Made by a program: the position numbers and the translations under genes. The notes beneath the pieces were generated by a model. It was not told the DNA's origin, did no database searches, and worked only from the letters and a program-made list of their open reading frames with translations. Below, one piece after another: positions 20,250-50,755 of a stretch of DNA of 64,000 bases. The DNA is from Alphaproteobacteria bacterium (GTDB lineage Bacteria > Pseudomonadota > Alphaproteobacteria > MPNO01 > UBA830), in assembly GCA_965243135.1 (NCBI GenBank), contig OZ251539.1, positions 352,001 through 416,000 of the forward strand. The letters are read 5' to 3'. Numbering within the stretch: position 1 is the stretch's first letter; every line of letters starts with the position of its first letter.

Positions 20250-20267
20250 GCCGGAAAGAAGGAGTTG

Positions 20268-21644
20268 ATGGCGAGAGACATCTACCAGGAGGTCACCGAC
20301 ACGATCCTGGCCCAGCTCGAAAAAGGCGTGCGCCCGTGGCAACGGCCGTGGGAGACCGGCGTCGAGGCCGAGAAGCCGGCCCCGACCCTGCCCCTCCGCC
20401 ACAACGGCGAACCCTACCGCGGCACCAACGTCGTTCTCCTCTGGTCCGCCGCCTCCGAGCGCGGCTACGACAAGCCCACCTGGATGACCTACCGTCAGGC
20501 GCAGGAACTCGGCGGCAATGTCCGCAAGGGCGAAAAGGGCGTCCTCGTCACCTTCGCCAAGACCTGGACGAAGACGGAGGTCGATCCCGAGACCGGAATC
20601 GAGGAGGAGAAGGAAGTTCCGGTCATGAAGGGCTACACCGTCTTCAACGTCGCCCAGATCGACAGCCTGCCGCAACAGTACTACGAGCGGAAGTCGGAAG
20701 AGATGAGCCCGGCGGCGCGGATCGAGGGGGCTGAGGCGTGGCTCCAGGCGACCGGCGTGGAACTGCGGCACGGCGGCGACAAGGCGTACTACAGCCCGGC
20801 CGGCGATTACGTGCAGTTGCCGTCCTTCGCGGCGTTCCGGGAGCCGCTCGGCTACTACGCGACGGCGATGCACGAGATCACGCACTGGACGCGGCACCCG
20901 GACCGTCTGGACCGGAATTTCGGGCAGAAGCGCTTCGGCGACAACGGCTACGCGATGGAGGAGCTGACGGCCGAACTGGGTTCCGCCTTCGTCGGCGCCG
21001 AGACGGGGATCGCGCCGGAGGTGCGCGAGGACCACGCGGCCTACATCGGCGCCTGGATGGCGGTGATGAAGGACGACAAGAAGGCCTTCTTCACGGCGGC
21101 GTCGCACGCCGCGAAGGCGGCCGAATTTCTGAGCGGGCTGACCGAGGGTTACCGGCGGACGGAGACCTTGGAGGAAACCCGGGAAGAGACGGTCGTGGTG
21201 CGGGCGCCGCCGCCAGCTCCGCCGTTGGTGACCGCGGAGCCGGCGGTGCAGGGGGAGCTGTTCCGGGGCGTCCCGGCGCGCGCTTTGGCGGGACCGGACG
21301 ACATCGTCCGCGGCGACTTGATCCGGTGGACCGAAGAGGTCCGCTCCGGCCCGTGGCCGTCGGTCGCCGGCCGGCGCGCGGTCGAGGCCGTGGTCGAGGA
21401 TTTCGTGGTCGACGCCGGCGGCGCGGGGGAGGACGCGGTCAGTCTCCTCGTCCGGAATTCCGAAGGGACCGCCGCGCTCGAAGCCGGCGACCGCATCTGC
21501 AGGACCGGCGACGACCTGTTCCGGGCGGGCTGCGAGCGGAGCGCCGGAAAGGAAGGAACGGAGCGGCAGGACGCCCTCGAGGAAAAGAACGCCGAGCGGG
21601 CGGCGCAGCGGGCGCACGCCCGAAGCTACGGCGTGTCGGCGTAG
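20268..21644 (+). CDS. ardC: ArdC-family ssDNA-binding anti-restriction protein (DUF1738 + zincin-like domain) with an extra C-terminal domain
   Basis: DIYQEVTDTILAQLEKGVRPW, YRGTNVVLLW, WMTYRQAQELGGNVRKGEKG, HEITHWT, YAMEELTAELGSAF. Confidence 0.93.
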   Translation: MARDIYQEVTDTILAQLEKGVRPWQRPWETGVEAEKPAPTLPLRHNGEPYRGTNVVLLWSAASERGYDKPTWMTYRQAQELGGNVRKGEKGVLVTFAKTWTKTEVDPETGIEEEKEVPVMKGYTVFNVAQIDSLPQQYYERKSEEMSPAARIEGAEAWLQATGVELRHGGDKAYYSPAGDYVQLPSFAAFREPLGYYATAMHEITHWTRHPDRLDRNFGQKRFGDNGYAMEELTAELGSAFVGAETGIAPEVREDHAAYIGAWMAVMKDDKKAFFTAASHAAKAAEFLSGLTEGYRRTETLEETREETVVVRAPPPAPPLVTAEPAVQGELFRGVPARALAGPDDIVRGDLIRWTEEVRSGPWPSVAGRRAVEAVVEDFVVDAGGAGEDAVSLLVRNSEGTAALEAGDRICRTGDDLFRAGCERSAGKEGTERQDALEEKNAERAAQRAHARSYGVSA

Positions 21645-25889: not shown

Positions 25890-28121
25890 TGGGCGCTTCA
25901 GAGCAGGGCGGCGCTCTCAACGGTTGGTCGATCAACGGAGCGCCTTGGCTCGTCGATACGTCGGAAAAGGCATCTCGATTCGTTGAGATGAGGCCCGGTT
26001 CTGAGCGCCAAGTTCTCGTCGTTTCGATGCGGGATTCGAGTGACGATCCCGAAGCCATGCCGATTTAGGTCAGGTCCGTGTTCGAGCGGACGGTCAGAAC
26101 CGCCCATGTCGTCGTCACGGCGACGGGAACCTTCGCTCTGACCAGGCTTGATTGGAAAGGAGCCGTCGCTCTTCCGGCAGGCCGTCCGGACCTACAGGAC
26201 GGGTTTCGATCCGAAAGGCGCGGCACCTCGCGAACATCCGTTGCTCGGCGGGTGCATAACGGATTGACCGGGCGGCCCGCGGTTTCGAGGTCGCGGAAAC
26301 TGCCTGCACGGCATTGTCGACCGGCAGGGTCGCGAACGCTTGTTGCCGTCTTAATGTCGCTCTCAAGCAGGCTACGCGGAAATTGCGCAAGAAAACTACG
26401 GCCGCCGTTTCGGTGACGGTTGCCGAGCGTGTGGCGCTGATCCAACGGGAAAACGAAGAGGTCGTCGTGGGGTGCAAATCTATTTTTGTAAAACCTTGTT
26501 TGCTCCGGGAAAGGATTCCCGCCGTCAGGCCGCGATGACGTCCAATGCCTGGTTTTCGTTTGCGGCGTGCGTTCCGGTCATCGCCAGCCGCGTCGAAGCG
26601 GCCCGACGCCGCCCTGAAGGTAAGGACGTTCTGACCGCATGCTCCAGCGCTGGCCCGCCCGTTTCATGCGGTGGTTGACCAGCACCTTGTTGGCGGCCTC
26701 CACGACGCCCGACCCGACCGGGTAACCCTTGGCCTTGAGGTTAGCGTAGCGCCCCCTGTTCTTGCGGAAGAATGCAAGCTCGCGGTCGAGAATCTTGAGC
26801 GCCGTTGCCTTGCCGCGGAGATGGTGAATCGCCCGGACGACCTTGTCGGCACCCTTTTCGTCGTCGCGCAGGATGGCGCGGTACCTGTCGTACCAGTCGG
26901 TCGCGACCGCGTGGTCGGCAACCTCGCTGAGGTGCTCGCACGCATGAAAGAAGTCGACCGCCCGTTCGTCGGGCTGAAGCCCCTCGAGAAACGTCCAGTT
27001 GTCGGGCGCGGCGTCGGCGACGGCGACCAGCGGCAGGTCGGGCCGCACTTTCCGGACGTGGGCGACCTCGGCGGCGAGCTGCGCCTTCAGCGTCGCCTTG
27101 CCGGCTTCCGGCATACGCGCAACGCTCACCGTTCTCAGGCGATTGCCGTCCGCGTCGTGGAAGCTGACAGTCCCGCAGGACGCCTCGCGCCAGCACGCTT
27201 CCCTGTCCCCGTCGGGGCGAAGCGGAACCCCGTCGAGCGAGACGGTGCAGGAAGCCGCTTCGCACCGTTTCCGCCTCGCGGATGTCGTTCCTGGCCGTCC
27301 CCTCCTTCTCGTTCCAGCGCTCGCCCGCCTTCGTCAACAGACGCGCAACTCGACGACGGGTTCATGCCCCGTTTGAGGATTTTGGCTCCGTCCGTCGGCG
27401 TGCAGTGGCACAGAAGCATAAGGGCGCTTTGCGCCGCCGGACCCGTGAGGTACTTGTCGAACAGGCCCAGGCCTTCGTCGACCGGCGAGAACGACGGGCT
27501 TCCCGGCGACCGGCGGACGCAAGAACTTGACCGGACCGAACAGCGTGGGTTTTCGACGTCGCTTTGGTGGACCGGTAGAAGACCCGGCCGTCCCGGCGGA
27601 CCGGGCCGGCGTTCTCGTCCCGATCCTCGACGTGCTTCACCGCGCGACCGAGCCCCCGCTTGCGCAGCCCGACCTCGAAATCGGCGAACGCCTCGGGGCC
27701 CCCTCGTTCGGCCCCTTCGGAAGGCCGCGAAAGACCGGAATGCTTCGACGGCCTCGCCCCCTTTCCCGAGGAAGGTTGCGAACGTTTGCAAAGCCTCGGC
27801 GGTCTCCCGGGAAAAAATCGAAAGGGACAAGCCGGTCGAAAGCTGCGATGCTGGCATGGGAGTGCTCCCGATGTTGTGGTTCGGAACCAACATTATGCCG
27901 CGCGCCTGGAGCATTCCTTTTTTCGTCCTCCGGCTCCGCTGTCGTGACAAAATTCGCGCCGGTTGTCACGAAATCGCTGATTTCGGCCTTGAGGCGCCGC
28001 AGCCAAAACCAGAATAATTATTGAAAATCAACGCACTGCAGGTTTTTCGGTTTTACAATTCTAGACCTGCACCCTCGTCGTGGGTTCGTCTCCGAACCAC
28101 CTCTGGACGAGAACTACCTGA
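25890..28121 (+). pseudogene. Decayed paralogue of the gene at 1-1350, interrupted by an IS
   Basis: PWLVDT, FERT...AHVVVTATG and RKLRKKT are retained; the last codons resume after the IS (ccgaaccacctc..acgagaa..acctga). Confidence 0.85.
26470..28074 (-). mobile_element. Decayed ISKra4/UPF0236-like insertion sequence
   Basis: 26-bp imperfect inverted repeats GGGTGCAAATCTATTTTTGTAAAACC / GGTTTTACAATTCTAGACCTGCACCC; 8-bp duplication TCGTCGTG; motifs VADAAPDNW, DFFHACEHL, GSGVVEAANK...RMKRAGQRW. Confidence 0.88.
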
Positions 28122-29533: not shown

Positions 29534-32500
29534 TCAACCAAGCACGTCCGAAATGATGGCGGCAATTTTTTCGGAGTCGATGCTTCCGTTCGCTTCGTCG
29601 CGCGTAACGATCAGCGTGCCGTTCTCGCCGCTTCCTTCTTCCGGCCGCAAGATGCTGTGGTTTCGGTACCATCCGAGTTTCTCCTCCCACCGGCGGCGGT
29701 AGCCGGGCACATGCAGCATCCCGCAGTGTTCCCAATAGAACGTCAATCCCGATTCCACGTCCTCGATGGTGAAATCCGGATATTTATTAGTGATGCCGCC
29801 ATCGAAGGTGAGCTCCTGTTCGTAGCCGTATTCAAGGCCAGCGTTGGCAAGATGATCCGCGATGATAACCTCGGATTTCGAGCGCACCATTTCGCCGCGA
29901 GCGGTGCGGTGGATCAAATTATTCTCGAAGAAGAGGCCATCGACCTCGACAGGCGACGGCGCGACGAAGAGGTTCGTCAAGCGGCGCGCTGTTTCGGAGC
30001 GGTCGCCCGAGGAATACTTGCGCAGTTCGGCGTGCGGGCCCTGGTGCAGGATGACGATCCGGTTCTTCTGGCGCGTGAGCGCGGTGTAGAGCAGTTCGCG
30101 AGAGAGGAGGCGGCAAGGATTCGGCAACACGAGGATGACGGTGCCGAACTGGCTGCCTTGAGATTTATGGACCGTCAGCGCGTAAGCGAGTTCAAGGACC
30201 GCATTGCTTTCTTCCGCAAAGTCACGATCAGTAAAGTCGTACTTGAAGCCGGGTTGAGAGGAAAACTCGACTTCGAGTTTCCAGCGGAAGTCGGGCTTCC
30301 CTCTCGGTCGAAAATAACCGACGGCCATGCCGATCTCGCCGTTGGCGATATAGGGATCGTCCTTATCCGGGTAAACCTTGCGATGCCCGTTTCGCGGGAT
30401 GCCGGTGTTGACAAGGTTGATGACCTTGTCGCCGTAGACGATTTCCTCGGCTCCCATTGGTCTGGGAATCCTGCGCTGCCATCCTTCCCTGCGTGCGGCA
30501 TCGACCATTGGCTGTCGGAACTGTTTGTGAATGAGCCGATTCAGATCGGGCACGCCATGGGCCGCCGACCGTACCGGCGAGAGGATCTGCCAGCGCTCGG
30601 CCGCCTCGGCCGCACCGATCTTCTCGCCCATTCCGGGGTTGAAGAAACGCAGGCCGTTCCATGGCACGCCGCCGAGCGTGGTGTCGAAGCCCTCGATATC
30701 GTCCGCATTCTTCAGAGGCAGTTCCTTCACCAACACCTCGAGGAGGCGAGAACGCATTTCTTCCGCGGTTTCCCATCGCACGAATTGGATGTGTTGGTCT
30801 TCGTCATTGCTCATTACCTTGTCAAACACATCGTCTTCGCCAGCCGCGACGGGCGAGCCGCTGAACCATTCGGCAAGTCGCAAATCCTCGCGGTTCTCGC
30901 CTGCCTGACGGTAGCGAACGGTCAATTCGGCGTAGCCGGGTCCGACGCGCGGAAACTTTTCGGTGATATTTTCCGGCGCGAGACGCTTGACGATGTCCAC
31001 GAACGGTCGGCCGGCCCCGATCGGGGGAAGCTGGCGTGGGTCGCCAATGAGAATAAGCCGGTGCACGCCTCTAAGCGCCTGGATCAGCGCGGCGAGCATT
31101 TCCTCGGTCAGCATTGACGCCTCGTCGACAATGACCGTACGCGCACCGACGTCGGTCGGTTTATCGGAGAGGCGGTAGCGACCCGTCGCGCCGTCATAGC
31201 GGTGCGGACTCAGGAACTGGGCGATGGTGTAGCCTTTGAGCTTGAGGTCCTTGGCGGATTGCTCCATGCGAACGCGGGCCTTTCCGGTCGGCGCGAGCAG
31301 CAAGACTCCGCTCGCCTCAAGTCCCGGGTGCGAGCAGAGGACCGACAGCAGGGTGGTCTTGCCGGCCCCCGCCGGGCCGATCAGCACGGATAGCCGTGCG
31401 GCCGCGAGTTCTTTCAACGCGGCTTCCTGCTCCGTCCGGCCATGTTCTTTCAGTTCGCCGGGCACTTCAAACGACTGGATCGAAGGGTGCGCGTCAAGGC
31501 ACGACCGCCAATCGGCTTCGACGACCAGGCGCTTGCCCTCGATGCGCTTCTCGATCGCGTTGCGGATAGTTGTCCCCGCCTTCCTGAGCCTGTCCAGTTG
31601 AAGGGCCGGTGCGCCGTCGGCCATGGCGAACTCTTCGACGGCCCCCCTGAAGTCTTCCTTGGCGGCGTTCATCAGGTCCGCATCGACCTGACAAGGCGGC
31701 TGCACGGGAAGCGCACGGATGCCAAGGACCACTTGATCTTGCGGAAGGAGCGTGCTGCCGCCGCTGGCTGCATCTTCTAGAACCTTGAGAACAAACGCAC
31801 GGACCCGGCGGGCGTCCGTTCCGGCATCCAAAGCAGTTGGCGTCGGGAGCGGGTGCCTCTCGCGGACGACCTCGTCCGGGAAGACGCCCCGGTCGACAGT
31901 CCAGACGCTGACGGGATCGGCGGTCAGGCGTGTGAGTTCGTAGAACAGATACGGGTTGGCAAGAAGATCTGCGTCGCTGGCGTCTATTCCGGCATTGGCG
32001 CGCTCTTCCCGGACATAGAGCGTGGTCGCCTGCTCCAGAGCGATCTCGAAGCGGCTCACGAGTTTAAGCAGCGCGCGTCGATCGTCGGGTAATCCGGACC
32101 ACTTGCTGCTGAGCGTTTCGCCGATGCTCCTTGCCAATCGCTCGGGCAGGTGTTTCCCGGGGTCGGCAAACATTTCGGCGACCAACGGCCAGGGATCGGC
32201 GTTGTCGCCGGCCTTGTCGGCGAGGATGCGGGCGACGAAAGTACCGAACTCCAACCCGAACGCCTTCAGCGCCGGGCCGAGCCCGGGGCATGGACCTCGC
32301 GCTTTCCACAGTTCACCGAGCCGCGCATCGATCCATTGCAGGCACCTGTCCCAAGGCCCCGGCAGGATGCTTTCGGCCTTGCGGAGCGATTTGGCACACT
32401 CAAGCAGCGAGGCAATGGCGCCGTCATGACTGACTAATTCCGAGCCGTACGAGAACTCGAGGAGACGGTCGGCGGGCGAGAAAGCGGCGATCTCCGCCGG

Positions 32501-33274
32501 ATCGAACTCCGGGTCATCGGCCGCCTTATCGATGGCCGCATGATACGGTAGCAGGAAGCCATCCGCGAAGTCGGGGCGAATGGAGTGCTGGATCATGCGC
32601 TCCCACAGCATCGCACGCAATTTTCCCTCGAGATCCCTCGTGGCGTAGTCGTACTCCCGTGCGTTGCCGATATCCTTCACGCGCCCGACGCCGATCAGGA
32701 TACGTCCGCCGGGCGAATCCTCCACGAACGGCACCTGCTTGGCGTAGAAGAAGCAGAGCGAGCGCTCTGGTTTGAGATGGCTGGCGAAACAGTCGAGCAG
32801 CGATGTTTGGTTTCGGTACTCCAGAATGAACTTTGTGGGGAATCCCAGATAGGGTTCGCGCTCAAGGTCGACATCGAGCCGGTGGTCTTTGCCAAGGGTC
32901 TCGATCGCTTCGCGAAACATCCAGGCGAAGGGTACGGCGGGCGCAGAGTAGGGCGGATGTCGCAGCGGCGTCCGCTTGAAGTGACCGTGCTTCGTCTCAG
33001 GGCCGCGGTTGTAGGGGTGATCGGCCATGCGAACGTATTCGAAGGGCGCCATGAAAGCGGCGCGCTCAGCAATGCACGATGGCCATTGCTCCTGCGAAAG
33101 ATTCCGGATGCTTTCTCCTGAGACGGAATCCTCCGCGTCGTCGTTCCGGCTTTTCGCAATGCGCTTGAGCTTGAGGCAAGCGCCATTCAGTCGCGGCGCG
33201 GCGCAGACGTTTCCGTCCCATCCGGTATCGTGCCATGGGACGCGGATGGAGATATGTCTCAACGGATAGTCCAT
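29534..33274 (-). CDS. RecD-like SF1B helicase fused to a C-terminal PD-(D/E)xK-like nuclease and a Cys-containing N-terminal domain
   Basis: GPAGAGKTT, VIVDEASM, GDPRQLPPIGAG, AYALTVHKSQGS, LLYTALTR; C-terminal RSKSEVII...YE...YPDFTI...YWEHCG. Confidence 0.9.
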   Translation of the reverse strand: MDYPLRHISIRVPWHDTGWDGNVCAAPRLNGACLKLKRIAKSRNDDAEDSVSGESIRNLSQEQWPSCIAERAAFMAPFEYVRMADHPYNRGPETKHGHFKRTPLRHPPYSAPAVPFAWMFREAIETLGKDHRLDVDLEREPYLGFPTKFILEYRNQTSLLDCFASHLKPERSLCFFYAKQVPFVEDSPGGRILIGVGRVKDIGNAREYDYATRDLEGKLRAMLWERMIQHSIRPDFADGFLLPYHAAIDKAADDPEFDPAEIAAFSPADRLLEFSYGSELVSHDGAIASLLECAKSLRKAESILPGPWDRCLQWIDARLGELWKARGPCPGLGPALKAFGLEFGTFVARILADKAGDNADPWPLVAEMFADPGKHLPERLARSIGETLSSKWSGLPDDRRALLKLVSRFEIALEQATTLYVREERANAGIDASDADLLANPYLFYELTRLTADPVSVWTVDRGVFPDEVVRERHPLPTPTALDAGTDARRVRAFVLKVLEDAASGGSTLLPQDQVVLGIRALPVQPPCQVDADLMNAAKEDFRGAVEEFAMADGAPALQLDRLRKAGTTIRNAIEKRIEGKRLVVEADWRSCLDAHPSIQSFEVPGELKEHGRTEQEAALKELAAARLSVLIGPAGAGKTTLLSVLCSHPGLEASGVLLLAPTGKARVRMEQSAKDLKLKGYTIAQFLSPHRYDGATGRYRLSDKPTDVGARTVIVDEASMLTEEMLAALIQALRGVHRLILIGDPRQLPPIGAGRPFVDIVKRLAPENITEKFPRVGPGYAELTVRYRQAGENREDLRLAEWFSGSPVAAGEDDVFDKVMSNDEDQHIQFVRWETAEEMRSRLLEVLVKELPLKNADDIEGFDTTLGGVPWNGLRFFNPGMGEKIGAAEAAERWQILSPVRSAAHGVPDLNRLIHKQFRQPMVDAARREGWQRRIPRPMGAEEIVYGDKVINLVNTGIPRNGHRKVYPDKDDPYIANGEIGMAVGYFRPRGKPDFRWKLEVEFSSQPGFKYDFTDRDFAEESNAVLELAYALTVHKSQGSQFGTVILVLPNPCRLLSRELLYTALTRQKNRIVILHQGPHAELRKYSSGDRSETARRLTNLFVAPSPVEVDGLFFENNLIHRTARGEMVRSKSEVIIADHLANAGLEYGYEQELTFDGGITNKYPDFTIEDVESGLTFYWEHCGMLHVPGYRRRWEEKLGWYRNHSILRPEEGSGENGTLIVTRDEANGSIDSEKIAAIISDVLG

Positions 33275-33670
33275 TGCCGTTCCGAGCCGTGAGGATCTTC
33301 AAGTCCCTCCGCCAACGCGGCGCAGGAAGCAGTATTCCGTTCGCTATATCAGTGCGCACGGGCCGTCAAGCTCTGCCCCGCAAATTGTGGCGCCGCTCGC
33401 TGCATCCTGCCCCGACGCTGGGGGTTTCCTCGGCCGAACCAGCACGCGAGCATCGGCCGGCAGCAGAATCAAATCCTGATACAGCGGCGCGATAGGATAG
33501 CTCGGCATCGTTCTTCGCCATTGTGCGGTACGATGGCGCGGTCCGGCGGCGGTAGACCGACCGACCGTAGCCAGCGCCAGCGGGCCGCTTCGGCCGGAGC
33601 GGGCGGGTCGCCGGACGACCTTCAACAGCAAGTCCCGGAGAAACCATTGCGCCAGCCGGCGCAATGGTCG

Positions 33671-33882
33671 CCATCGGCCCACGCGCACGCGGGCGGAAAG
33701 GAAGATCTCGTGCGCGCCAACGGTGCCGATCACATCGGCCCACGCGCACGCGGGCGGAAAGCCTCCGCGTTGGCCAGGATCAGGTCCTGGAGCCATCGGC
33801 CCACGCGCACGCGGGCGGAAATCATCCGCCTGGACGGTTGGCCGCCAAACGGCCCATCGGCCCACGCGCGCACGGGCGGAAA
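33671..33882 (-). CRISPR. Orphan CRISPR-like mini-array: four 29-bp repeats and three 32-bp spacers
   Basis: CCATCGGCCCACGCGCACGCGGGCGGAAA starts at 33671, 33732, 33793 and 33854 (exact 61-bp period) with unique spacers. Strand is inferred from the G-U stem and the AT-richer flank on the right. Confidence 0.85.
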
Positions 33883-34421
33883 CAGTGTGATACGGGATCA
33901 CATTATTTTTTCGGGACCGCAACATGCGGTAGGCCCGAGAGGCGAGTCGCGTTTTCATGCCCACTACATATCGAGCAAATTTGCCCGATTACCGGCGGGA
34001 TCAAGGCCAGGGTCCGGGTCCACGAGTACCCCGACCATACCCGCGCCGTTTTCCACGCTTCTGGACGCCTCGCACGCTAACGGACCGATGGGTCTTCGCA
34101 ATGCAAACCAGAAAGCCGTGCAACCGGCTCCGACGCGACCCTCTGGAGCAGAGAGCCGCTTCGTGCCTAACCGCCTCCCCGCAGGCCCGACCATTGGAAC
34201 GGAAACGGCAAGCCGCCAAGGCGAGCCCGAAGTGTTATGATGCTGCAAGTCGAGTACTTACCTGAAAGACATCCCGCCGAGGGCGTTCTTCTACCCCATC
34301 CGAACTCGGGAGATAAGTCGTTATTTGTCCGAAACCGGCAGATAGTCAGTTCCATGTGTCTCAGGAAACGGCTTGCGCCGTTTGTGTTTCGCAAAGCCGC
34401 AAGGCCGACGGAGGTTGCAAC

Positions 34422-36533
34422 ATGAGGATTCGTTCCCGTGAATTACTGCGGCTGGTTGCGATCTTCGTCTCGACGGCAGCGGTCGCAGGGGCGGCGGATC
34501 GGCTTGCTGCCCAGAAACTTGGCGAACCCGCCGCGAAACCCGAAACCGGAATTGCGCTGCCTGACCGCCGCCCGCCGCCGACAACCCAACAGATGCCGGA
34601 CGATGCGGCAGTTGTCGAAATTGAACGCCGCTTCATCGAACTCCAGAACGAAGACATCGAACTTAGGAAGGAAAACAACGAACTCAGGAAGGAAATTCTC
34701 CTGGGCCGCAGCAAATTGGTCGACTGGTGGCTTGCCGCAGTTGCCGTGCTGCTGACCACGTTCGGCGTTATTCTCGCCATTGCCGGTTTTTTCGGTTTCA
34801 GGCGATTTCGCGAAATCGAGAAGGAGGCGAGGGAGAGCGTGAGCGCGGCCGAGCGACAATTCGAAAAGGCTGCGACCCTCGTTGACAACATCAAGACAAC
34901 GAAACAACAGGCCGACTTTATTCTCGGTAGCCTAAAGGAAACTACTTCGGAATTCGTTCGCGACAATCCGGAAAGAGCGGACGAAGTCGCAAGAAGCGTT
35001 CGGGAAAATCCGATGGCGACCTTAGTGGATCGGGCGATCGCAGACGCCATCTCGCTTCAGGGATCGGAAGATTTTGAGGCGGCAATCGAAAAATGGCGAT
35101 CGATTGCCAACCTTTCGGAAGGGACCGATCGAGGCCTCGCGGCGCGGTCGTGGTTTTCCGTCGGATATCTGTGTCAGGAAATTTCCGACACCGAAGCGGC
35201 GATAATGGCCTATGACAGAGCCCTGCAAATGAACCCTGGTTCGGCCGCTGCCTACAACAACCGCGGCAACGCCAATTGCGATCTGGGACTGCACGAAGAG
35301 GCCCTCGCGGATTACGGCGCGGCGATCCGGCTCAGCCCGGACGATGCCGCTGCCTACTACAACCGCGGCGCCGCCAAGAGCGATCTGGGACTGCACGAAG
35401 AGGCCCTCGCGGATTACAGCGAGGCGATCCGGCTCAAGCCGGACTATGCCGAAGCGTACAACAACCGCGGCAACGCCAAGAAAGATCTGGGACTGCACGA
35501 AGAGGCCCTCGCGGATTATAGCGAGGCAATCCGGCTCAAGCCGGACTATGCCGAAGCGTACAGCAACCGCGGCATCGCCAAGAAAGATCTGGGACTGCAC
35601 GAAGAGGCCCTCGCGGATTATAGCGAGGCAATCCGGCTCAAGCCGGACTATGCCGAAGCGTACAGCAACCGCGGCGTCGCCAATTGCGATCTGGGACGGC
35701 ACGAAGAGGCCCTCGCGGATTACGGCGAGGCGATCCGGCTCAAGCCGGACTATGCCGAAGCGTACAACAATCGCGGCAATGCCAAGAGCGATCTGGGACG
35801 GCGCGAAGAGGCCCTCGCGGATTACGGCGAGGCGATCCGGCTCAGGCCGGACTTTGCCGAAGCGTACAACAACCGCGGCATCGCCAGGAGAAATCTGGGA
35901 CAGCACGAGGAGGCCCTCGCGGATTACGGCGAGGCGGTCCGGCTCAAGCCGGACGATGCCGTTGCCTACTGCAACCGAGGCGTCGCCAAGAGCGATCTGG
36001 GACGGCACGAAGAGGCCCTCGCGGATTACGGCGAGGCGATCCGGCTCAAGCCGGACTATGCCGAAGCGTACAACAACCGCGGCAACGCCAAGAAAGATCT
36101 GGGACTGCACGAAGAGGCCCTCGCGGATTACGGCGAGGCGATCCGGCTCAAGCCGGACGATGCCGAAGCGTACAACAACCGCGGCAATGCCAAGAGCGAT
36201 CTGGGACGGCGCGAAGAGGCCCTCGCGGATTACGGCGAGGCGATCCGGCTCAAGCCGGACGATGCCGAAGCGTACAACAACCGAGGCGTCGCCAAGAGCG
36301 ATCTGGGACGGCACGAAGAGGCCATCGCGGATTACGGCGAGGCGGTCCGGCTCAGCCCGGACTTTATCTCTACATATTACAATCGGGGGCGGGCAAATAT
36401 GGAATTGGGACATGCGAGCAAAGCGCGGCAAGACTTCATGACAACGATGGCCTTGGCTCAAGAAAAAGGCGACGAGAAACTTGCCCGTGCCGCGAGAGAA
36501 GCCCTTGGAACATCGCTCGACGAAAACGAATGA
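34422..36533 (+). CDS. Membrane-anchored TPR protein with 11 near-identical 34-aa repeats
   Basis: RBS ggagg; signal-like N-terminus, coiled coil, TM helix WWLAAVAVLL...GFFGF; AEAYxNRGxAxxDLGxHEEALADYxEAIRLKPD repeats of 102 bp. Confidence 0.95.
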   Translation: MRIRSRELLRLVAIFVSTAAVAGAADRLAAQKLGEPAAKPETGIALPDRRPPPTTQQMPDDAAVVEIERRFIELQNEDIELRKENNELRKEILLGRSKLVDWWLAAVAVLLTTFGVILAIAGFFGFRRFREIEKEARESVSAAERQFEKAATLVDNIKTTKQQADFILGSLKETTSEFVRDNPERADEVARSVRENPMATLVDRAIADAISLQGSEDFEAAIEKWRSIANLSEGTDRGLAARSWFSVGYLCQEISDTEAAIMAYDRALQMNPGSAAAYNNRGNANCDLGLHEEALADYGAAIRLSPDDAAAYYNRGAAKSDLGLHEEALADYSEAIRLKPDYAEAYNNRGNAKKDLGLHEEALADYSEAIRLKPDYAEAYSNRGIAKKDLGLHEEALADYSEAIRLKPDYAEAYSNRGVANCDLGRHEEALADYGEAIRLKPDYAEAYNNRGNAKSDLGRREEALADYGEAIRLRPDFAEAYNNRGIARRNLGQHEEALADYGEAVRLKPDDAVAYCNRGVAKSDLGRHEEALADYGEAIRLKPDYAEAYNNRGNAKKDLGLHEEALADYGEAIRLKPDDAEAYNNRGNAKSDLGRREEALADYGEAIRLKPDDAEAYNNRGVAKSDLGRHEEAIADYGEAVRLSPDFISTYYNRGRANMELGHASKARQDFMTTMALAQEKGDEKLARAAREALGTSLDENE

Positions 36534-37628: not shown

Positions 37629-38112
37629 AAACGCTCATGATCGGAGCCTGCTCGCCCCGTAGCATGTAACTTTGGGGGTGGTTCTCCCGGCCTCGCGCCA
37701 TGCGCCGACATAACCGTTCCGCGTTCGGGCGTCGAGGCGCGAAGACAGGGCTATACGGGGCTGCCCTCAGTGTCACGCTCCTCTCGAACGGCGAGCGCCG
37801 CCGCGAAAAAATCTCGCGGAACGGTTTCGTGTGGCCGGCAGATCAGGGTAGTTACACAACAACAAACGCTCATGATCGGAGCCTGCTCACCCCGTAGCAT
37901 GTAACTTTGGGGGTGGTTCTCCCGGCGTCGCGCCGCTATCATGCGCCCACATAACCGTTCCGCGTTCGGGCGTCGCGGCGTGAAGACAGGGCTATACGGG
38001 GCAGCCCTCAGCGTCACGCTCCTCTCGAACGACCAGCGCCGCCGCGAAAAATCTTCGATTCGCGGAATGGTTTTTTGCGGCCGGCAGCTCGGAGGTAGTT
38101 ACACAGCAAACG
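37629..38112. repeat. Tandem non-coding duplication (units of ~235 and ~244 bp)
   Basis: aaacgctcatgatcggagcctgctc starts at 37629 and 37864; both units end gtagttacaca.c..aaacg. Confidence 0.92.
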
Positions 38113-38219
38113 AAGGTCTTTTTCGGCCGGGCGTCTGGACATCCGGAATTTTTTTGCCCGTCGGGGCATGTCATGATTCTTTCCGCGCCGTGCTAGAAGA
38201 AGGTCAAGGCGGTAACAGA

Positions 38220-39443
38220 ATGGCCAGCATGCTGCTTTCCCGACCGGCTGCCTCTTCGGCCGATCCGCTCCCTGTCGCGGACATCCAGACCGGGCGCGCG
38301 ATCTATCTCGACTACGCCGCGACGACGCCGGTAGATCCTTCCGTCGCCAAGACAATGGCTGGATTCCTCACGGTCGACGGCGATTTCGGCAATCCCGCCT
38401 CGACCACCCACGAATTCGGCCGGGTTGCGGCAGACGCCGTTGAGGATGCCCGCGGGGAAGTCGCGAAGCTGCTTGCGGCAAAGCCTCGGGAAATCGTCTG
38501 GACCTCCGGCGCCACCGAAGCGATCAATCTCGCCATGAAGGGAACCGCGCTTGCCCGCGGGGGCCGCGGCGCGCACATCGTCACATCGGCTCTGGAACAC
38601 AAGGCGGTCCTGGACACGGCGGCCTGGCTCGAATCCCAGGGTTTCGACGTCGACCGCATCCGACCCGGCGGCGGAACGGTCACCGCCGAGAGTCTTGCCG
38701 AGGTCTTGCGACCGGACACCGTCCTCGTATCGCTGATGCACGTCAACAACGAGACCGGAACCGTCACCGATATCGCGGAACTCGGTTCCCTGATTCGGGA
38801 GCACGGAGCTTTGTTTCACGTGGACGCGGTGCAAAGCGCCGCCCGGCTTCCTCTCGACGATATTGCCGCCGCAGCCGATCTGATCTCGATCAGTGCGCAC
38901 AAGATGTACGGGCCAAAGGGAATCGGCGCGCTTCACGTTCGCGGACGCCTCGCCGCCGAACTGGAGCCCCTGATGCACGGAGGCGGACACGAACGCGGAT
39001 TGCGCCCGGGAACGCTCCCGGTGCACCAGATCGTCGGCATGGGGCACGCAGCCCGACTTGCGCTCCAGCGGCGCGATAGCGACACGGAACGCGTCGGCGC
39101 GCTCGATGAGCGGCTCCGCGACCACATCGAACGGATCGAGGGCGCCGAGATCAACGGGAACCCCGATTGGCGCGTCCCCGGCATTCTCAGCGTTCATTTT
39201 CCGGGCGTCGAGGCTGAATCGCTGATGGTCGCGCTCGACAATCTTGCGGTCTCCTCAGGTTCCGCCTGCACGTCGGCCGATGTCGAGCCGTCGCATGTCC
39301 TGCGCTCTCTCGGCTACGACGCCGAACGCGCGCTTTCGTCGGTGCGCATAAGCTTCGGGCGGTTCACGACCGCCCGTGAGATCGACTGCGCCGGAGAACT
39401 GCTTCGGGAAACGGTAACAATCCTTCGGAGAATTGCACGATGA
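38220..39443 (+). CDS. dndA: Cysteine desulfurase (DndA/IscS family)
   Basis: YLDYAATTP, TSGATEA, HVDAVQ, SAHKMYGPKG, SSGSAC; ATGA overlap with dndC. Confidence 0.88.
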   Translation: MASMLLSRPAASSADPLPVADIQTGRAIYLDYAATTPVDPSVAKTMAGFLTVDGDFGNPASTTHEFGRVAADAVEDARGEVAKLLAAKPREIVWTSGATEAINLAMKGTALARGGRGAHIVTSALEHKAVLDTAAWLESQGFDVDRIRPGGGTVTAESLAEVLRPDTVLVSLMHVNNETGTVTDIAELGSLIREHGALFHVDAVQSAARLPLDDIAAAADLISISAHKMYGPKGIGALHVRGRLAAELEPLMHGGGHERGLRPGTLPVHQIVGMGHAARLALQRRDSDTERVGALDERLRDHIERIEGAEINGNPDWRVPGILSVHFPGVEAESLMVALDNLAVSSGSACTSADVEPSHVLRSLGYDAERALSSVRISFGRFTTAREIDCAGELLRETVTILRRIAR

Positions 39444-40615
39444 CCGCCACTCGGGACAATGCCGTCGCGACTCTTCCTGATCGACTGGACGCAATCCTCT
39501 GCACGCTCCGGAAGGAGTACCGGAGGAGGCATCGGCATCCTTGGATCGTCGCTTATTCGGGCGGGAAGGATTCCACTTTGCTGCTGCAATTCGTCTGGGA
39601 AACCGTTGCCGGACTTGCGGAGGCGGAACGCAAGCGGCCGGTGTTCGTCGTCGGAAACGACACGCTCGTGGAATCCCCCCTGGTCATCCGGCACCTCCGG
39701 GACTCGCTGGAGACTGTCGGTGCCGCCGCCGAGCGCGAGGGCCTTCCGCTCGAAACCGAAATCACCGAGCCATGCATCGACCAGACTTTCTGGGTCAACG
39801 TCATTGGCCGCGGGTACATCCCTCCGACCAGGAACTTCCGCTGGTGCACCGACAGGATGAAGATCGTACCGACCAACCGGTTGCTGGAACAGGTGGTCCG
39901 TGAAACCGGAGGAGCGATTCTCCTGATCGGCAGCCGCAGGGCCGAGTCGGACAACCGCAAGCGGGCGATGGACCGCCGGAAAGTTTCCGCCCTGCGCATG
40001 AACCCGCACAGCTCCGTCGCCGGATGCAGGATGTTCGCTCCGCTCGCGGACCTCTCCGACGACGATGTGTGGATGACGCTGATGCAACGCAAACCGCCGT
40101 GGGGCGGGACGCATCGACGGTTGATCACGCTCTACAGGAACGCGGGCGGCGGGGAATGCCCTCTGGTGATGACGAAAGAACAGGCTCCGTCCTGCGGAAC
40201 CTCTTCGCCGCGTTTCGGCTGCTGGACCTGCACCGTCGTAACCAAGGACCGCAGCCTCCGCGGGCTGATCGAATCCGGACATGCGGAGGCGGCGAAGATG
40301 GAGGCTCTCGGAGATTTCCGGGAGTGGCTGGTCGAGACTCGCGAGAACAATGCGAACCGGCTGCCGGTCCGGAGGAACGGGAACGCGAAGCGGCGGGCCG
40401 ATGGATCGACGGTCTTCGGCCCGTTCAGGCTGGAAGTCCGGAAGGAAATTTTGAAACGCTTGCGCGATCTTGAAACGGAAATCGGGGAAGATCTCATCCT
40501 TCCTGCGGAAGTCGAATGCATCGAAGACATGTGGTGGCGCGACGAAATCCGCGAGAACGCGCGACAGGCTCTCGACCGGCGCATGTTCGCCGACGCCGAG
40601 GAAGTCGCCGCATGA
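39440..40615 (+). CDS. dndC: DNA phosphorothioation sulfurtransferase DndC (PAPS reductase family)
   Basis: PWIVAYSGGKDS, DTLVESP, FWVNVIGRGYIPP..FRWCTDRMKI, CG.S.RFGCWTCTVV.KD.SL. Confidence 0.9.
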   Translation: MTATRDNAVATLPDRLDAILCTLRKEYRRRHRHPWIVAYSGGKDSTLLLQFVWETVAGLAEAERKRPVFVVGNDTLVESPLVIRHLRDSLETVGAAAEREGLPLETEITEPCIDQTFWVNVIGRGYIPPTRNFRWCTDRMKIVPTNRLLEQVVRETGGAILLIGSRRAESDNRKRAMDRRKVSALRMNPHSSVAGCRMFAPLADLSDDDVWMTLMQRKPPWGGTHRRLITLYRNAGGGECPLVMTKEQAPSCGTSSPRFGCWTCTVVTKDRSLRGLIESGHAEAAKMEALGDFREWLVETRENNANRLPVRRNGNAKRRADGSTVFGPFRLEVRKEILKRLRDLETEIGEDLILPAEVECIEDMWWRDEIRENARQALDRRMFADAEEVAA

Positions 40616-42381
40616 TCAGGGTTACCTCTAAGGTTTCGCTCATTTCCGAGGTGCTGGACTCGGGGCGGCTCGAGGTTCCGTGGCATCAGCGTTACTACGA
40701 CTGGAAGGAGGAGCAGGTCGGCGATCTGCTCTTCGACCTCAGGGACGCCGTGGGCGCCGGCAAGTCGTGCTACTTCCTCGGGTCGATCATGTTGGTCAAG
40801 ATGCCCGGCGGAAGACTGCGGCGGATCAACGACGGCCAGCAGCGCCTGATCACGCTGTCCCTGATCGTCGCCGCGCTTTGCCGCCGGTTCGCACGGAGGC
40901 AGCCTCGCGACGGGAAACGGGAAATGCTCGGGCTGCGTGTGCTGTTCGAACGCTCGCCGAACGAGACCTCCCAGCTGGCGCAGGCGTCGAGATACACGCC
41001 GCGGATTGAACCGCCGAGAAACGACAAGTCGCGCTACGTCCAAGTCATTCGCGGGCACGACATCGGGACGAACGGTCTCCTCACCGCCGCGTGGAGCGTG
41101 ATCGAAATCTTCGTCGACGTGATGAGCACGGCGGACGCCGAGGCGTTCTTCGACTTTCTCATGCAGAAGGTGGAAGTGTCCGTTCTGGACATACCGGCGG
41201 ACGTCGACGCGAATTCCGTCTTCGAGGCGCTGAACGCGCGCGGCAAGCCGCTCGACGACGTCGATCTGATACGGAACCGGCTGTATTCGTATTTCTCGGG
41301 GCCGGAGGAATCGACCCGCCGCGAGACGGTTCACGAGAACCTGGAACGCACCCTCGTGATCGGCCGCCTCGCCAGCAAGGTGCAGGAGTATTTCCGCTGC
41401 TACCTGCAGTGCCGTTACGGCTATCTGCAAAAGGCGCGGTTCTACCGGGACGCGCGCAACAACATTGAAAAAGCGATCGGTTCGCAAAATGCGGCTGATT
41501 ACATCTTTGAGCTCGTCGAAGGGCTGGGGAGAGAGGAGGGGATCGAGCTGTTCCGGACGATCACCTCCACGCGTCCCAACCCGAACTTCGAGAAGCTTTT
41601 GCCGACGGCCTCCGCGAAACGCGGACCGACCGTTCTGTTGGGAGAACTGCAGGGCTACAAGGTGTCGCATCCGTTGGTGTTCGCGTTGCTGCATCGCTTC
41701 ATCGACGGAAACGACCGGAATGCCAAGCGGCGAATCTGGCAGGCGGCGCTGCGCAGCCTGAAAAACCTGTCGTCGTTCGTGATGCGCACTGCCTTTGCCG
41801 CGCCGAAATTCGAGCCGTCCAAGTTCGAAGCCGCTTTCGCGAACATGGCGAAGAGCGTGTTCGAGGGCGACGACTTCCAGTCTCTCGACATCCTCGACGA
41901 TCTTGAGGCGAACGACGAATACAGCGTCATGAACGATGCGAACTTCGTCCGGCGCATGACCGATATCGAGTTCCGCGACGCGAAGAAGGCAAGGCGTTAC
42001 CTGTTCGGCATCAACGCCAGAAACCAGCCGGGGTCGGGGGTGCTGAGAGAAGACCGCTGCAGCCTGGAGCATGTGCTGCCGCAGTCCGAAGACCACTGGG
42101 TGGGATGGCCGGAATTCGGCGATCCGGAACGTTGGGTTCACCGGGCCGGCAACATGGTCGTGGTCGCGGACAAGGAGAACAGGCCGGGTGCCGACTACAA
42201 TCGGGATTACGCCGCGAAGAAGCGGGTCTTTGCCGGCAGCGCGTTGCTCATGCCGCGCGAGGTGGCGGAAGCCTGCGAAGAATGGACGTCCGAGGTGGTG
42301 GAGCGGCGTTCTGCGGAGCTGGCGAAAGAAGCCGCAGAAACCTGGCAGTTCGTGAACAACCAGGGGCATAGAAGGAAATGA
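40612..42381 (+). CDS. DUF262 + DUF1524 protein (GmrSD/SspE-like NTPase-HNH nuclease)
   Basis: VPWHQRYYDW, YFLGSI, NDGQQRLIT, VFEALNARGKPL, SLEHVLPQ...GNMV...N; ATGA overlap with dndC. Confidence 0.88.
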   Translation: MIRVTSKVSLISEVLDSGRLEVPWHQRYYDWKEEQVGDLLFDLRDAVGAGKSCYFLGSIMLVKMPGGRLRRINDGQQRLITLSLIVAALCRRFARRQPRDGKREMLGLRVLFERSPNETSQLAQASRYTPRIEPPRNDKSRYVQVIRGHDIGTNGLLTAAWSVIEIFVDVMSTADAEAFFDFLMQKVEVSVLDIPADVDANSVFEALNARGKPLDDVDLIRNRLYSYFSGPEESTRRETVHENLERTLVIGRLASKVQEYFRCYLQCRYGYLQKARFYRDARNNIEKAIGSQNAADYIFELVEGLGREEGIELFRTITSTRPNPNFEKLLPTASAKRGPTVLLGELQGYKVSHPLVFALLHRFIDGNDRNAKRRIWQAALRSLKNLSSFVMRTAFAAPKFEPSKFEAAFANMAKSVFEGDDFQSLDILDDLEANDEYSVMNDANFVRRMTDIEFRDAKKARRYLFGINARNQPGSGVLREDRCSLEHVLPQSEDHWVGWPEFGDPERWVHRAGNMVVVADKENRPGADYNRDYAAKKRVFAGSALLMPREVAEACEEWTSEVVERRSAELAKEAAETWQFVNNQGHRRK

Positions 42382-45013: not shown

Positions 45014-45393
45014 CAGAGGTTCCCGGATCCGCATGGTCCGGCGTCTGCCGTCGTCGGCGGTCGAGCTTTCGGAAGCGGAACGGATAGCGCGAGGTTTGCA
45101 GGGATGCGCATCGCAGCCAGAGACGAAACAAGGGCATTGCGCCGCGACGTTCGCGCTCAATGTGAAACCGTGCGTCGGCGCGCCTTTCAGGCACCGTTAG
45201 CGCGTTCGGGCAACCTCTCGGCGATCTCCCCGCTTTCGGGCGGCCGGTTGCGGTCTTTTGATCGGGAGGCCCCGGACCTGTTCGCTTGCTGCACGGTGAA
45301 TTCCGTCCGAATCGGAGCGAGACGCTCCGTCATCGTTCCTGCTGGCTTCCCTGGGCGTTTGAGAGAGAGAAAGGTTTCCTGGATATCTCTCGG

Positions 45394-46776
45394 ATGACCG
45401 ACTCGAGCGACGCTTTGCAGTTGCGCCATCGCGCCGAAAAACGGCTCGGGGTGCCGGCCTCATTGCACGACTACCAGTGGGAAGGCGTCTCCTTTCTGTA
45501 CCGGTCCCGCTCCGCGCTTCTCGCCGACGAGATGGGCCTCGGGAAGACGGTGCAGACTTCGGTTGCGCTCGCGCTTCTCCTCAACGGACGAAGCGGCGTC
45601 GGCCGCGTCCTGATCGTCGCGCCGGCGTCCCTGACGACGAACTGGATGGACGAACTCGAAACCTGGGCGCCCACCATCGCCGCCCGGCGCATGCAGGGAA
45701 ACGCCCGCGCCCGCGAGGCGTTCTACCTGCTCCCGATCCCGGTCCTCGTCGGATCCTACGAGCAGATCCGGCAAGACGGCCTTGACCGTATCCCGGCCAA
45801 CACCTTCGACCTCGTCGTCCTCGACGAGGCACAACGGATCAAGAACAGGAACTCCGCCACGGCGCTGGCCTGCCGGCTGCTGCCGCGGACGCGTTCTTGG
45901 GCGCTTTCGGCCACCCCGCTCGAGAACGACCCCAGCGACGTGGTCTCGATCCTGAGTTTTCTCGATCCGGAAATCAGACCCGGCGAATCCCCGTTTCGCC
46001 TGCGCGCCCGTCTCGACGCGATGATGCTGCGACGGCGCAAGCTTGAGGTCCGGGCCGAGTTGCCGCCGGTCATCCTTCAGGATCTCAGGCTCGATCTCTC
46101 CGGGGTTCAGCGCAATGCCTATGACGAGCTGTGGGAAAAGCGCGCGGAGACGATCAGAGAAGGAGCGGAGGGCGGCGACCCCGGCGCGGCCATACTCGGC
46201 CTGATCACGCGACTCAAGATGGTCTGCAATTTCGTCGAGGATGCCTCTTCCAAATTCGAGGCGCTCGAGGTGATCGCCGAAGGGGCGGGGAAGTCCGGCA
46301 GGATTCTCGTGTTCTCGCAGTTCGTGAGAACGCTGCAGTGGGCTTCCGACCGGTTGAAGCTTCCACACGGATTTCTTACGGGGGCGATGACGCCCGCCGA
46401 AAGGCAGGCGGCCATCGACGAATTCAGGCACGGGCCGGCGCCGAGAGTCCTTTTGGTATCCCTCCGCGCCGGCGGCGTGGGCCTCAATCTGGGCGAGGCC
46501 ACCCATGTGGTCCTCTTCGACAGGTGGTGGAACCCGGCCGTCGAGAACCAGGCGATCTACCGCGCGCACCGCTTCGACCGCGAAGAGCCGTTGCATGTCG
46601 TCCGATTTCTGGCTACGGATACGATCGAAGAGCGCATCTCTGAGATCCTGGAGCAAAAGGAGCTTCTGTTCGACGAGGTCGTGGAGACGGCCGGGGCCGA
46701 AGCGCGGCGCTTTACCCGCAATGAATTGATCCGTATTCTTGAGATCTCGAATCTCTTTCCGGCGTCGGAGGCGTAA
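45394..46776 (+). CDS. Stand-alone SNF2-family ATPase/helicase
   Basis: LLADEMGLGKT, VLDEAQRIKN, SATPLEN, LVFSQF, GGVGLNL, DRWWNPAVENQA..RAHR. Confidence 0.93.
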   Translation: MTDSSDALQLRHRAEKRLGVPASLHDYQWEGVSFLYRSRSALLADEMGLGKTVQTSVALALLLNGRSGVGRVLIVAPASLTTNWMDELETWAPTIAARRMQGNARAREAFYLLPIPVLVGSYEQIRQDGLDRIPANTFDLVVLDEAQRIKNRNSATALACRLLPRTRSWALSATPLENDPSDVVSILSFLDPEIRPGESPFRLRARLDAMMLRRRKLEVRAELPPVILQDLRLDLSGVQRNAYDELWEKRAETIREGAEGGDPGAAILGLITRLKMVCNFVEDASSKFEALEVIAEGAGKSGRILVFSQFVRTLQWASDRLKLPHGFLTGAMTPAERQAAIDEFRHGPAPRVLLVSLRAGGVGLNLGEATHVVLFDRWWNPAVENQAIYRAHRFDREEPLHVVRFLATDTIEERISEILEQKELLFDEVVETAGAEARRFTRNELIRILEISNLFPASEA

Positions 46777-46779
46777 GTC

Positions 46780-49348: not shown

Positions 49349-49571
49349 CGGGTTCCCCGAGATCGCTGTCTGCTGCGATGCGGACGTTCCCATGGGCACC
49401 CGGAAAACGGATCCTGGCAACGAACCGGCCGCCGGCACCGATGGCCGGTCTTCCAGCTACAGGTGAAAATTGGAAGATTTACCGGGTGGGTCGGGCGAAT
49501 TGTTCCGTTCGCGGCAACGGGAGCGATGCAAAACTGACCCCCAGGTCCAGACGGAACGAAGGAGGCAATTC

Positions 49572-50450: not shown

Positions 50451-50755
50451 CAGCTTCCATGACCGCCGGCGGTCATCGCCCTCCGAAATGGCCGGAGGTT
50501 CTTTTGCCTTTCCCGGACCGACGACCTGTTGCCTGCGGTTTCAGGCTATCGAGCGACGACTGCACCCGGCGGTCGCCAACCCCGCCGCCGCCCGGAGCAA
50601 AGCGGAGGCCGCGCCCAGGACTTGGTGTGGAAATCAGCGTACCAAGTGCTTGATCCGAATCGGCAGGTAGCGATGATGAAGCGGTTCGGAGTCGATCGAT
50701 ACTCGGGCGGTCTCGGCATCGAGCGCGCTAAAGCAACGGGGAAGGGATCCTGGCG

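Follow-up and report, generated by a model that had tools for sequence, protein, structure and literature searches.

New CRISPR arrays, termed neo-CRISPR loci, reportedly arise from non-canonical integration by type I-E Cas1-Cas2, in work said to have been published by Nivala, Shipman and Church in 2018 (Nat Microbiol 3:310). Off-target integration that spawns new arrays was reportedly observed in Escherichia coli with over-produced Cas1-Cas2 (bioRxiv 10.1101/148544, PMC7054753, PMC11788318), and the natural neo-CRISPR examples are described as circumstantial only (bioRxiv 10.1101/148544). Here we describe a short CRISPR-like array that lies beside the gene for a large RecD-like helicase in a 64,000-nt stretch of DNA (hereafter the window), which comprises bases 352001-416000 of the single-contig 6.10-Mb genome of an alphaproteobacterium (contig OZ251539.1). 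The evidence presented below argues that this array is probably a natural neo-CRISPR locus that arose by off-target integration through type I-E Cas1-Cas2. What is new here is the genome-wide tally of 61-nt units, the empty sites at sibling loci, the self-origin of the spacers together with their flanking motif, the differences from this genome's canonical array, and the placing of the window locus in the same process.

The loci in this genome resemble the E. coli neo-CRISPR loci in that 28 bp of non-CRISPR DNA are duplicated around a 33-nt insert in the presence of a type I-E adaptation module, and in that recurrent insertion can lead to multi-unit arrays with spacers that are largely the cell's own DNA. 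Unlike those of E. coli, the events here are natural and fixed in the genome, at about 11 independent loci with up to 11 repeats; several of the loci have paralogous empty sites, and the window locus varies between strains. Two other kinds of described loci are close to the window array. Isolated arrays that lie far from cas genes, in genomes with a Cas system of a fitting length class, are one of them (PMC7145637, PMC13142298); there, however, the repeats are nearly identical to those of the cas-adjacent array, and in the Pseudomonas case (P. aeruginosa CRISPR3) the leader is as well, whereas the window array reaches 46-50% repeat identity and shows no leader likeness. The other kind, type IV loci with DinG or RecD-like helicases, likewise combines a short array with a nearby helicase of superfamily 1 or 2 (SF1/SF2), but the window has no csf or cas genes, its helicase fits the PDC-S68 family end to end, and the homologues of the helicase are without arrays.

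Results

A four-repeat array with the geometry of a type I-E system

Both a repeat search and direct reading of the sequence revealed an invariant 28-nt core that occurs four times, reads CATCGGCCCACGCGCACGCGGGCGGAAA on the + strand, and recurs at a period of exactly 61, 61 and 61 nt. The array spans window positions 33672-33882 (Table 1) and has the composition by which CRISPR arrays are recognized (at least three constant repeats and constant, unique spacers), with four repeats of 28 nt and three mutually unrelated inserts of 33 nt. One base on either side of the core is partly conserved; the original prediction, made from the sequence of the window, had counted 29-bp repeats and 32-bp spacers because it took one semi-conserved flanking base as part of the repeat, and the two descriptions are the same thing. 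Since 61 is not a multiple of 3, a coding or protein repeat is excluded.

The minus-strand repeat folds as had been predicted, into a 7-bp stem with one G-U pair and a 4-nt loop (-14.2 kcal/mol, z -1.97, 9 of 200 shuffles as good), and the variant fourth repeat keeps the pairing through wobbles. The + strand repeat is nearly as stable (-12.4 kcal/mol, z -1.54), and because both strands fold similarly the fold cannot fix the strand. Rfam gave no CRISPR-DR match for the repeat, the sole match being a chance one to a microRNA model, below threshold. A promoter and terminator scan detected no promoter-like site at the array, and neither flanking hairpin qualified.

Several features point to a direction of reading. 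The + strand is suggested by an AAG on the low-coordinate side of the one spacer that could be mapped (see below), by the degenerate repeat at the high-coordinate end, and by a small hairpin with a T-run after repeat 4; the minus strand is suggested by a G-U rather than an A-C in the stem, by an 11-bp hairpin beyond repeat 1, and by the AT-rich far side. Repeat alignment, fold energy and flanking hairpins gave near-equal answers for both strands. On balance we lean toward reading the array from the + strand, in which case array and helicase gene would diverge. The PAM side and the degenerate end repeat thus suggest the opposite of the shared strand that the original prediction had given to the two.

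A complete type I-E system is encoded 4.9 Mb from the array

No Cas family was detected in the window, whether among the 120 open reading frames (ORFs) of at least 130 aa (Pfam, E <= 1e-5) or among the 30 ORFs near the array (PADLOC). The absence of cas genes that had been noted for the window thus holds for these 64 kb, but not for the genome, in which a complete type I-E operon (Cas3, Cse1, Cse2, Cas7e, Cas5e, Cas6e, Cas1e and Cas2e) was found at 5.307-5.316 Mb, 4.9 Mb from the array. Cas1 models matched at 5.264, 5.283 and 5.308 Mb, and those of Cas7e and Cas6e at 5.31 Mb. Cas1e scored 301 bits (cut-off 215.6) and Cas2e 95 bits; Cas2e, Cas5e, Cas7e, Cse2 and Cas3 were above their cut-offs, Cas6e and Cse1 were slightly below those of NCBIfam and above those of Pfam, and the cas1e and cas2e frames are open. 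The canonical array of this system consists of 78 repeats, again with a 28-nt core plus 33 nt and with a period of 61 in 75 of the 77 intervals. The two other arrays of the genome have 36- and 37-nt repeats and periods of 66 and 74-81.

The mini-array in the window falls into the same length class as the I-E family (28/29 + 32/33), but its repeat is identical to the resident I-E repeat at 13-14 of 28 positions (46-50%), below the 74% identity threshold applied by Bernheim et al. (PMC7145637). Local alignment of both mini-array flanks to the canonical leader gave scores within those of shuffles. In searches of plasmids the mini-array had no array-type match, whereas the resident array matched 64 plasmid records; among the matches listed for the 4.85-kb canonical array, those to plasmids were multi-place or near-full-length, as the comparison of one array with another gives, and nothing usable was obtained against phages.

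Independent 61-nt units and their empty sites

With the three big arrays masked, the genome was scanned for 28-mers that recur, allowing up to 2 mismatches, at any spacing between 45 and 90 nt. Twelve loci were found at a distance of 61 nt and none at 46, 47, 49, 50, 53, 55-59 or 62 nt; the other distances that are not multiples of three gave 0-5 loci, and the multiples of three gave matches from coding repeats. The units at 1.91 and 1.92 Mb are an identical segmental duplicate, which leaves about eleven independent loci including the window array. The number of repeats ranges from 2 to 11, and each locus has its own repeat. These repeats have a common GCGCGCG-type core and, in the best register and strand, are identical to the I-E repeat at 14-17 of 28 positions (the genome background for at least 16/28 is 0.16% of positions); that of the 4.81-Mb locus is near-canonical (25/28). 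The sibling arrays adjoin unrelated genes.

An empty site, that is, a copy of the 28-mer without an insert, could be traced for four of the siblings, namely those at 2.99, 2.74 and 2.21 Mb and the one in a high-copy element (0.97/1.91 Mb). The 2.99-Mb unit is carried by one of the copies of a DDE_Tnp_1_4 transposase gene; comparison with a paralog leaves a gap of exactly 61 nt, and in all five of the other copies matched by both flanks (5/5) the flanks meet over the 28-mer with no insert. The 28-mer of the 2.74-Mb array, which has 11 repeats and lies in coding DNA, is present once in a paralogous Transposase_31 (YhgA/Rpn-like) gene. Comparison of the 2.21-Mb locus with its paralog gave gaps of 116 and 1 nt, where 122 (2 x 61) were expected. 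The units at 0.97 and 1.91 Mb occupy the same 28-bp site of a high-copy element, two or three copies of which carry different spacers there.

Repeats of another size were also seen in two copies around unique inserts. These are about 35-37 nt long and lie at genome positions 1915579 (period 67), 2822592 and 3444837 (76), 5486219 (77) and 5962733 (81); they may be single-spacer scars of the genome's two other CRISPR systems, whose periods are 66 and 74-81.

Origin of the spacers

Half of the unique mini-array spacers (13 of 26) match the genome itself at 30/33 or better, compared with 2 of 77 in the canonical array (Fisher p = 7.6e-8); in the 2.74-Mb array at least 4 of the 9 unique spacers are the genome's own DNA. 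Fourteen sources were mapped, one of them at 29/33, and five of these are preceded by AA and two by AT (background frequency of AA or AT 0.0795, binomial p = 4e-5). Six of the 14 lie at 4.45-4.94 Mb, a region that makes up 8% of the chromosome and is not the terminus by GC skew (origin at about 5.16 Mb, terminus at about 1.65 Mb). The window itself contains, at 10269-10301, the exact 33/33 source of the second spacer of the 2.51-Mb mini-array.

One of the three window spacers, spacer 1, was traced in this way. It is identical at 32 of 33 positions, the mismatch being at position 24, to a sequence inside a zinc-dehydrogenase gene, and on the + strand AA comes before the source, whose first base is G, which places AA+G on the low-coordinate side (1/1 mapped spacer). 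This is the AAG arrangement of E. coli type I-E, in which the G enters the array. Orthologues of the dehydrogenase in four same-genus genomes are only 68-73% identical at the DNA level, and the spacer was therefore taken in this lineage. Comparison of the spacers with phage and plasmid databases, which the original prediction had proposed as a way to find targets and derive a protospacer adjacent motif (PAM), brought no targets, the matches of the array to the plasmid and phage collections being short and at chance level (best E 0.06 and 0.2); the origin that did emerge, for spacer 1, was the cell's own chromosome, behind AAG.

The canonical array differs in this respect. An A is found at the leader-facing end of its 33-nt unit in 2 of 78 cases, the other end being near background. 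Two canonical spacers match the chromosome, those at 5304541-5304573 (33/33 at 4133743) and 5304663-5304695 (30/33 at 5244039). Both carry AA+G at the leader-distal end, as if they had been inserted flipped; the canonical PAM rests on these two self-matches and on the end-base statistics. A plausible account is that interference removes correctly oriented self-spacers from the canonical array and that flipped ones survive, and that self-spacers can persist freely in the mini-arrays because these make no contribution to interference.

These results bear on the possibility that the window array, whatever its origin, is a working satellite, with a transcript that the resident Cas6e cleaves and that serves the resident Cascade-Cas3 in trans, as the original prediction had envisaged in proposing a mini-array served by a distant Cascade. 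An I-E system of the same geometry with a complete interference module does exist in the genome, and the hairpin of the window repeat starts at position 6, as in the resident repeat. If the minus strand were read, the PAM of the self-spacer would be at the wrong end, like those of the two surviving canonical self-spacers. There is also precedent in the literature, in which distant arrays often match Cas systems encoded in trans (Bernheim et al. 2019, PMC7145637) and an isolated I-F array is active 1.3 Mb from the cas genes in P. aeruginosa (PMC13142298). However, the 46-50% identity of the repeats is well below the 74% typing threshold of Bernheim et al. (PMC7145637), and the stem is 7 bp rather than 6 bp long, leaving a tail of 5-6 nt instead of 8 nt. 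Moreover, on the + strand the spacer targets the cell's own chromosome behind AAG and should be lethal if the array were active, and the self-derived half of the mini-array spacers, against 2.6% in the canonical array, argues for escape from interference selection. We consider a working satellite decidedly improbable; of the envisaged use in trans, the presence of a fitting system stands, and a part in interference is doubtful given the self-match behind AAG and the 13-14/28 repeat.

The repeat is confined to one locus, which differs between strains

The original prediction had called for a search of the repeat throughout the genome and in metagenomic data, and at the stringency of the patterns used the repeat proved private to the window locus. 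It has no other occurrence in its own genome and is found in none of 25 other genomes of the family (0/25), which also lack the helicase-array segment. Across 185,579 species genomes, a degenerate pattern of the repeat gave 30 chance matches, all of them single and lacking a neighboring second copy; an exact 21-mer of it matched metagenome contigs 11 times, again singly and never as an array. In none of the genomes searched did the repeat lie beside a standard cas operon, an arrangement that the original prediction had named, together with arrayless helicase homologues, as speaking against it.

Contigs of a metagenomic run from another study (X6) join window position 33699 to 33855 through 33 different letters. 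They represent the window locus in a form that has two repeats and a single, different spacer, and spacer content has therefore changed since the strains split. Of the six holder sequencing runs listed, none is recorded as RNA. The flanks of the X6 locus differ from the window at a few positions, and the X6 spacer has no match in the present genome at up to 3 mismatches. One contig also bridges the junction (33956-34118) with a truncated insertion sequence (IS), whose end at 34001 is thus bridged in the related strain as well.

This IS raises the question of whether the array could be the remnant of a horizontally acquired I-E-like locus that lost its cas genes through an IS-mediated deletion, leaving an orphan array with a diverged repeat. 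Between the truncated ISNCY-like element and the array there are 118 nt, an ISKra4-like element is found beyond the helicase, the array sits in a mobile defense island, and its repeat folds like a CRISPR repeat; self-matching spacers, moreover, are classic companions of decayed CRISPR systems. On the other hand, a decayed locus of this kind would have to be reconciled with a repeat that was not found as an array in the other genomes or metagenome contigs searched and that is identical to the resident I-E repeat at 13-14 of 28 positions. The eleven further 28+33 loci have unrelated repeats and, in some cases, proven empty sites, which separate decayed loci cannot explain. In addition, the IS junction is common to the strain with a different spacer, so that the putative deletion is shared whereas the spacers differ. 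We therefore regard the remnant explanation as unlikely.

The neighboring helicase gene

The protein encoded beside the array had been described as a 1246-aa RecD-like helicase-nuclease that starts about 400 bp away. The ORF, which starts 397 nt from the array, and the helicase core are as described, and the nuclease part is plausible from structural modeling. In PADLOC the protein matches the PDC-S68 model PDLC05065 over its full length (E = 0, 1596 bits; residues 1-1244 of 1246 against model positions 1-1218 of 1221). The PDC families are 145 untested phage defense candidates (Payne et al., bioRxiv 10.1101/2024.01.29.577857), among which PDC-S68 is catalogued as a single-gene candidate; a literature search for PDC-S68 by name found no paper. 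Neither the N-terminal 600 aa nor the C-terminal 162 aa has a significant Pfam match. An AlphaFold model of the C-terminal part built from 6 sequences (predicted local distance difference test score 77.6) gave weak Foldseek matches (best E 1.3e-3, template modeling score about 0.4), and the best-ranked of these were mostly restriction-endonuclease-like nucleases (Bax1, the R2 endonuclease domain, McrC, XisH and Hjc), so that a nuclease at the C-terminus is plausible at the level of the model. The type IV link that had been suggested through RecD did not survive closer comparison, as the match of the type IV RecD model covers the generic helicase core alone (residues 614-763; 150 of 763 positions).

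Homologues were searched for in two sets of 401 genomes, one from the phylum and one from the class, and 15-18 kb around each locus were compared. Full-length or split homologues were found in 9 other genomes, in addition to a 48%-identical paralog in this genome, a second PDC-S68 gene at 2603904-2607611. In the roughly 5-6 kb to each side, none of these ten homologous helicase loci has a CRISPR-like repeat, whereas the same script detects the array in the window, and none has a 28-mer within 8 mismatches of the repeat.

One could envisage that the array stores guides for the adjacent protein, which would then be a new RNA-guided effector; this was the other function put forward in the original prediction. 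What can be adduced for it is the adjacency, with 397 nt to the gene start, and the N-terminal 600 aa for which Pfam offers no match. Against this stand the ten homologous loci, which have neither an array (within about 5-6 kb) nor a repeat-like 28-mer, the cataloguing of PDC-S68 as a single-gene candidate, and the eleven sibling arrays that adjoin unrelated genes; the PAM side and the degenerate end repeat also suggest an array directed away from the helicase gene. The idea of an undescribed RNA-guided helicase-nuclease is thus contradicted by the full-length PDC-S68 match and by the arrayless homologues, and we consider it very improbable.

Other features of the window

The window is a mobile defense island, in which ArdC, DndA/DndC-like genes, GmrSD, a restriction-modification pair and a Dsr1-like SIR2 protein were recognized (Pfam, PADLOC). 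At 37941-42378 a DndA/SspA-like cysteine desulfurase, a DndC-like PAPS-reductase-fold protein and a GmrSD/HEC-06-type nuclease are encoded in a row, which looks like a compact phosphorothioation-type defense module. Further island genes lie at 45286-47604, 49470-52449, 53956-57450 and 20265-21641; these four segments hold an SNF2 helicase beside a ParB-N protein, an HNH protein, an N6/N4 methyltransferase with a SmaI-like endonuclease, a 1165-aa Dsr1-like SIR2 protein, and ArdC, whose ArdcN and zincin peptidase domains hint at a conjugative element. The TPR gene by the array and its upstream region (34040-36530) have an 83-84% identical paralog at genome 1272618-1275408.

Table 1. Coordinates of the array, its flanking features and the related units (window positions, unless marked as genome positions)
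Feature	Coordinates	Strand	Remarks
Repeat 1	33672..33699		Core equals consensus
Spacer 1, 33 nt	33700..33732		Copy of own Zn-dehydrogenase gene, genome 1905075-1905107, 32/33
Repeat 2	33733..33760		Core identical
Spacer 2, 33 nt	33761..33793		No source in own genome, 25 family genomes, or phage and plasmid collections
Repeat 3	33794..33821		Core identical
Spacer 3, 33 nt	33822..33854		No source in own genome, 25 family genomes, or phage and plasmid collections
Repeat 4, end repeat on high-coordinate side	33855..33882		Variant, two substitutions
11-bp GC-rich hairpin directly beyond repeat 1, then TTTCTCC (minus strand)	33643..33668	-	Weak terminator candidate, read from sequence
6-bp hairpin TGTGAT/ATCACA, then TTATTTTTT, directly beyond repeat 4	33886..33911	+	Weak terminator candidate, read from sequence
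Unique intergenic stretch, 397 nt, helicase start to array	33275..33671		Unlike leader of canonical I-E array
PDC-S68 protein, 1246 aa; N-terminal 600 aa unassigned, RecD2-like SF1 helicase core, probable restriction-endonuclease-like C-terminus (from model)	29534..33274	-	Pfam, PADLOC, Foldseek
ISNCY-like IS, 3' end remnant of 208 nt, ends 118 nt from array	34001..34208	+	13 further partial genome matches, 73-86% identity
ISKra4-like IS, brackets helicase on other side	26581..28075	-	6 further partial genome copies
Further 61-nt loci (n=11)	genome 973350, 1912721/1922849, 2208564, 2510624, 2545732, 2742314, 2992257, 4477870, 4812992, 5621021		28-nt direct repeats, unique 33-nt inserts

Discussion

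We propose that the window array is probably a natural neo-CRISPR locus made by off-target type I-E integration. The argument starts from the geometry of the array, the excess of units at 61 nt, the empty sites of the siblings, the self-derived spacers flanked by AA or AT, the complete I-E system, and the different spacer in another strain. The lengths of 28 and 33 nt are those of the canonical array, an adaptation module is present in the genome, and the repeat is not linked to cas genes in the data searched; spacers from the cell's own DNA account for 13 of 26 in all mini-arrays and, with a PAM, for 1 of 3 at the window locus (32/33, AAG). According to the model we favor, Cas1e-Cas2e, encoded 4.9 Mb away, would insert prespacers of 33 nt into a 28-bp stretch of ordinary intergenic DNA, whose loose likeness to the true repeat lies in a GC-rich palindromic core. 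The 28 bp would be duplicated at each insertion, and repeated insertion at the same end would give rise to four repeats and three spacers; the site would lie between the PDC-S68 helicase gene and the IS remnant by chance. The I-E adaptation module is most likely the maker of the array, although its Cas1e-Cas2e activity in this organism is putative, as deduced from the genes. We infer that Cas1e-Cas2e was the agent of integration, that off-target integration also applies to the window locus itself, and that insertion was polar, from the low-coordinate side; the array would then give no working guide RNAs for interference.

Several observations weigh against this proposal. No empty site was found for the window array, the left flank being unique in the genome and the locus missing from the 25 family genomes. 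In this respect it differs from the 2.74-Mb array, with which it shares the genome, the 28+33 geometry and the proposed maker: the latter has 11 repeats in coding DNA and a paralogous empty site, whereas the window array has four, is intergenic, and yielded no such site. Only 1 of the 3 window spacers was mapped, so the PAM argument at this locus is a single case, and genome-wide 7 of the 14 mapped protospacers have no AA or AT flank on either side. The 7-bp hairpin of the repeat starts where I-E repeats start theirs, as would also be expected of a true I-E repeat that has diverged. With a truncated IS only 118 nt away, a deletion could have removed neighboring cas genes. Finally, the difference from the X6 strain could stem from differential loss of spacers rather than from a new insertion.

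The origin of new CRISPR arrays is an old open question, and off-target integration has been shown mainly with over-produced Cas1-Cas2 in E. coli. If neo-CRISPR formation took place as proposed here, one complete genome offers some eleven natural cases of it, which range from single scars up to arrays with 4 and 11 repeats. It also contains internal controls, namely paralogs in which the site is empty, the canonical array that belongs to the same system, and strain variation at the window locus. It also carries a warning, in that a short orphan array need not be the guide store of the large gene beside it. One might go further and suppose that the genome has caught CRISPR arrays at birth, with its I-E integrase continuing to found new ones along the chromosome, and that a few of them, such as the window array, are already transcribed and used by Cascade. 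We regard this as a long shot; if true, Cascade might use them for defense or for silencing the cell's own genes, for example the matched dehydrogenase, and there would be a natural route from an integration scar to a working satellite array. Which sites a native integrase prefers, how fast arrays are born, and at what stage a scar turns into an array fit for use could all be measured in this single organism.

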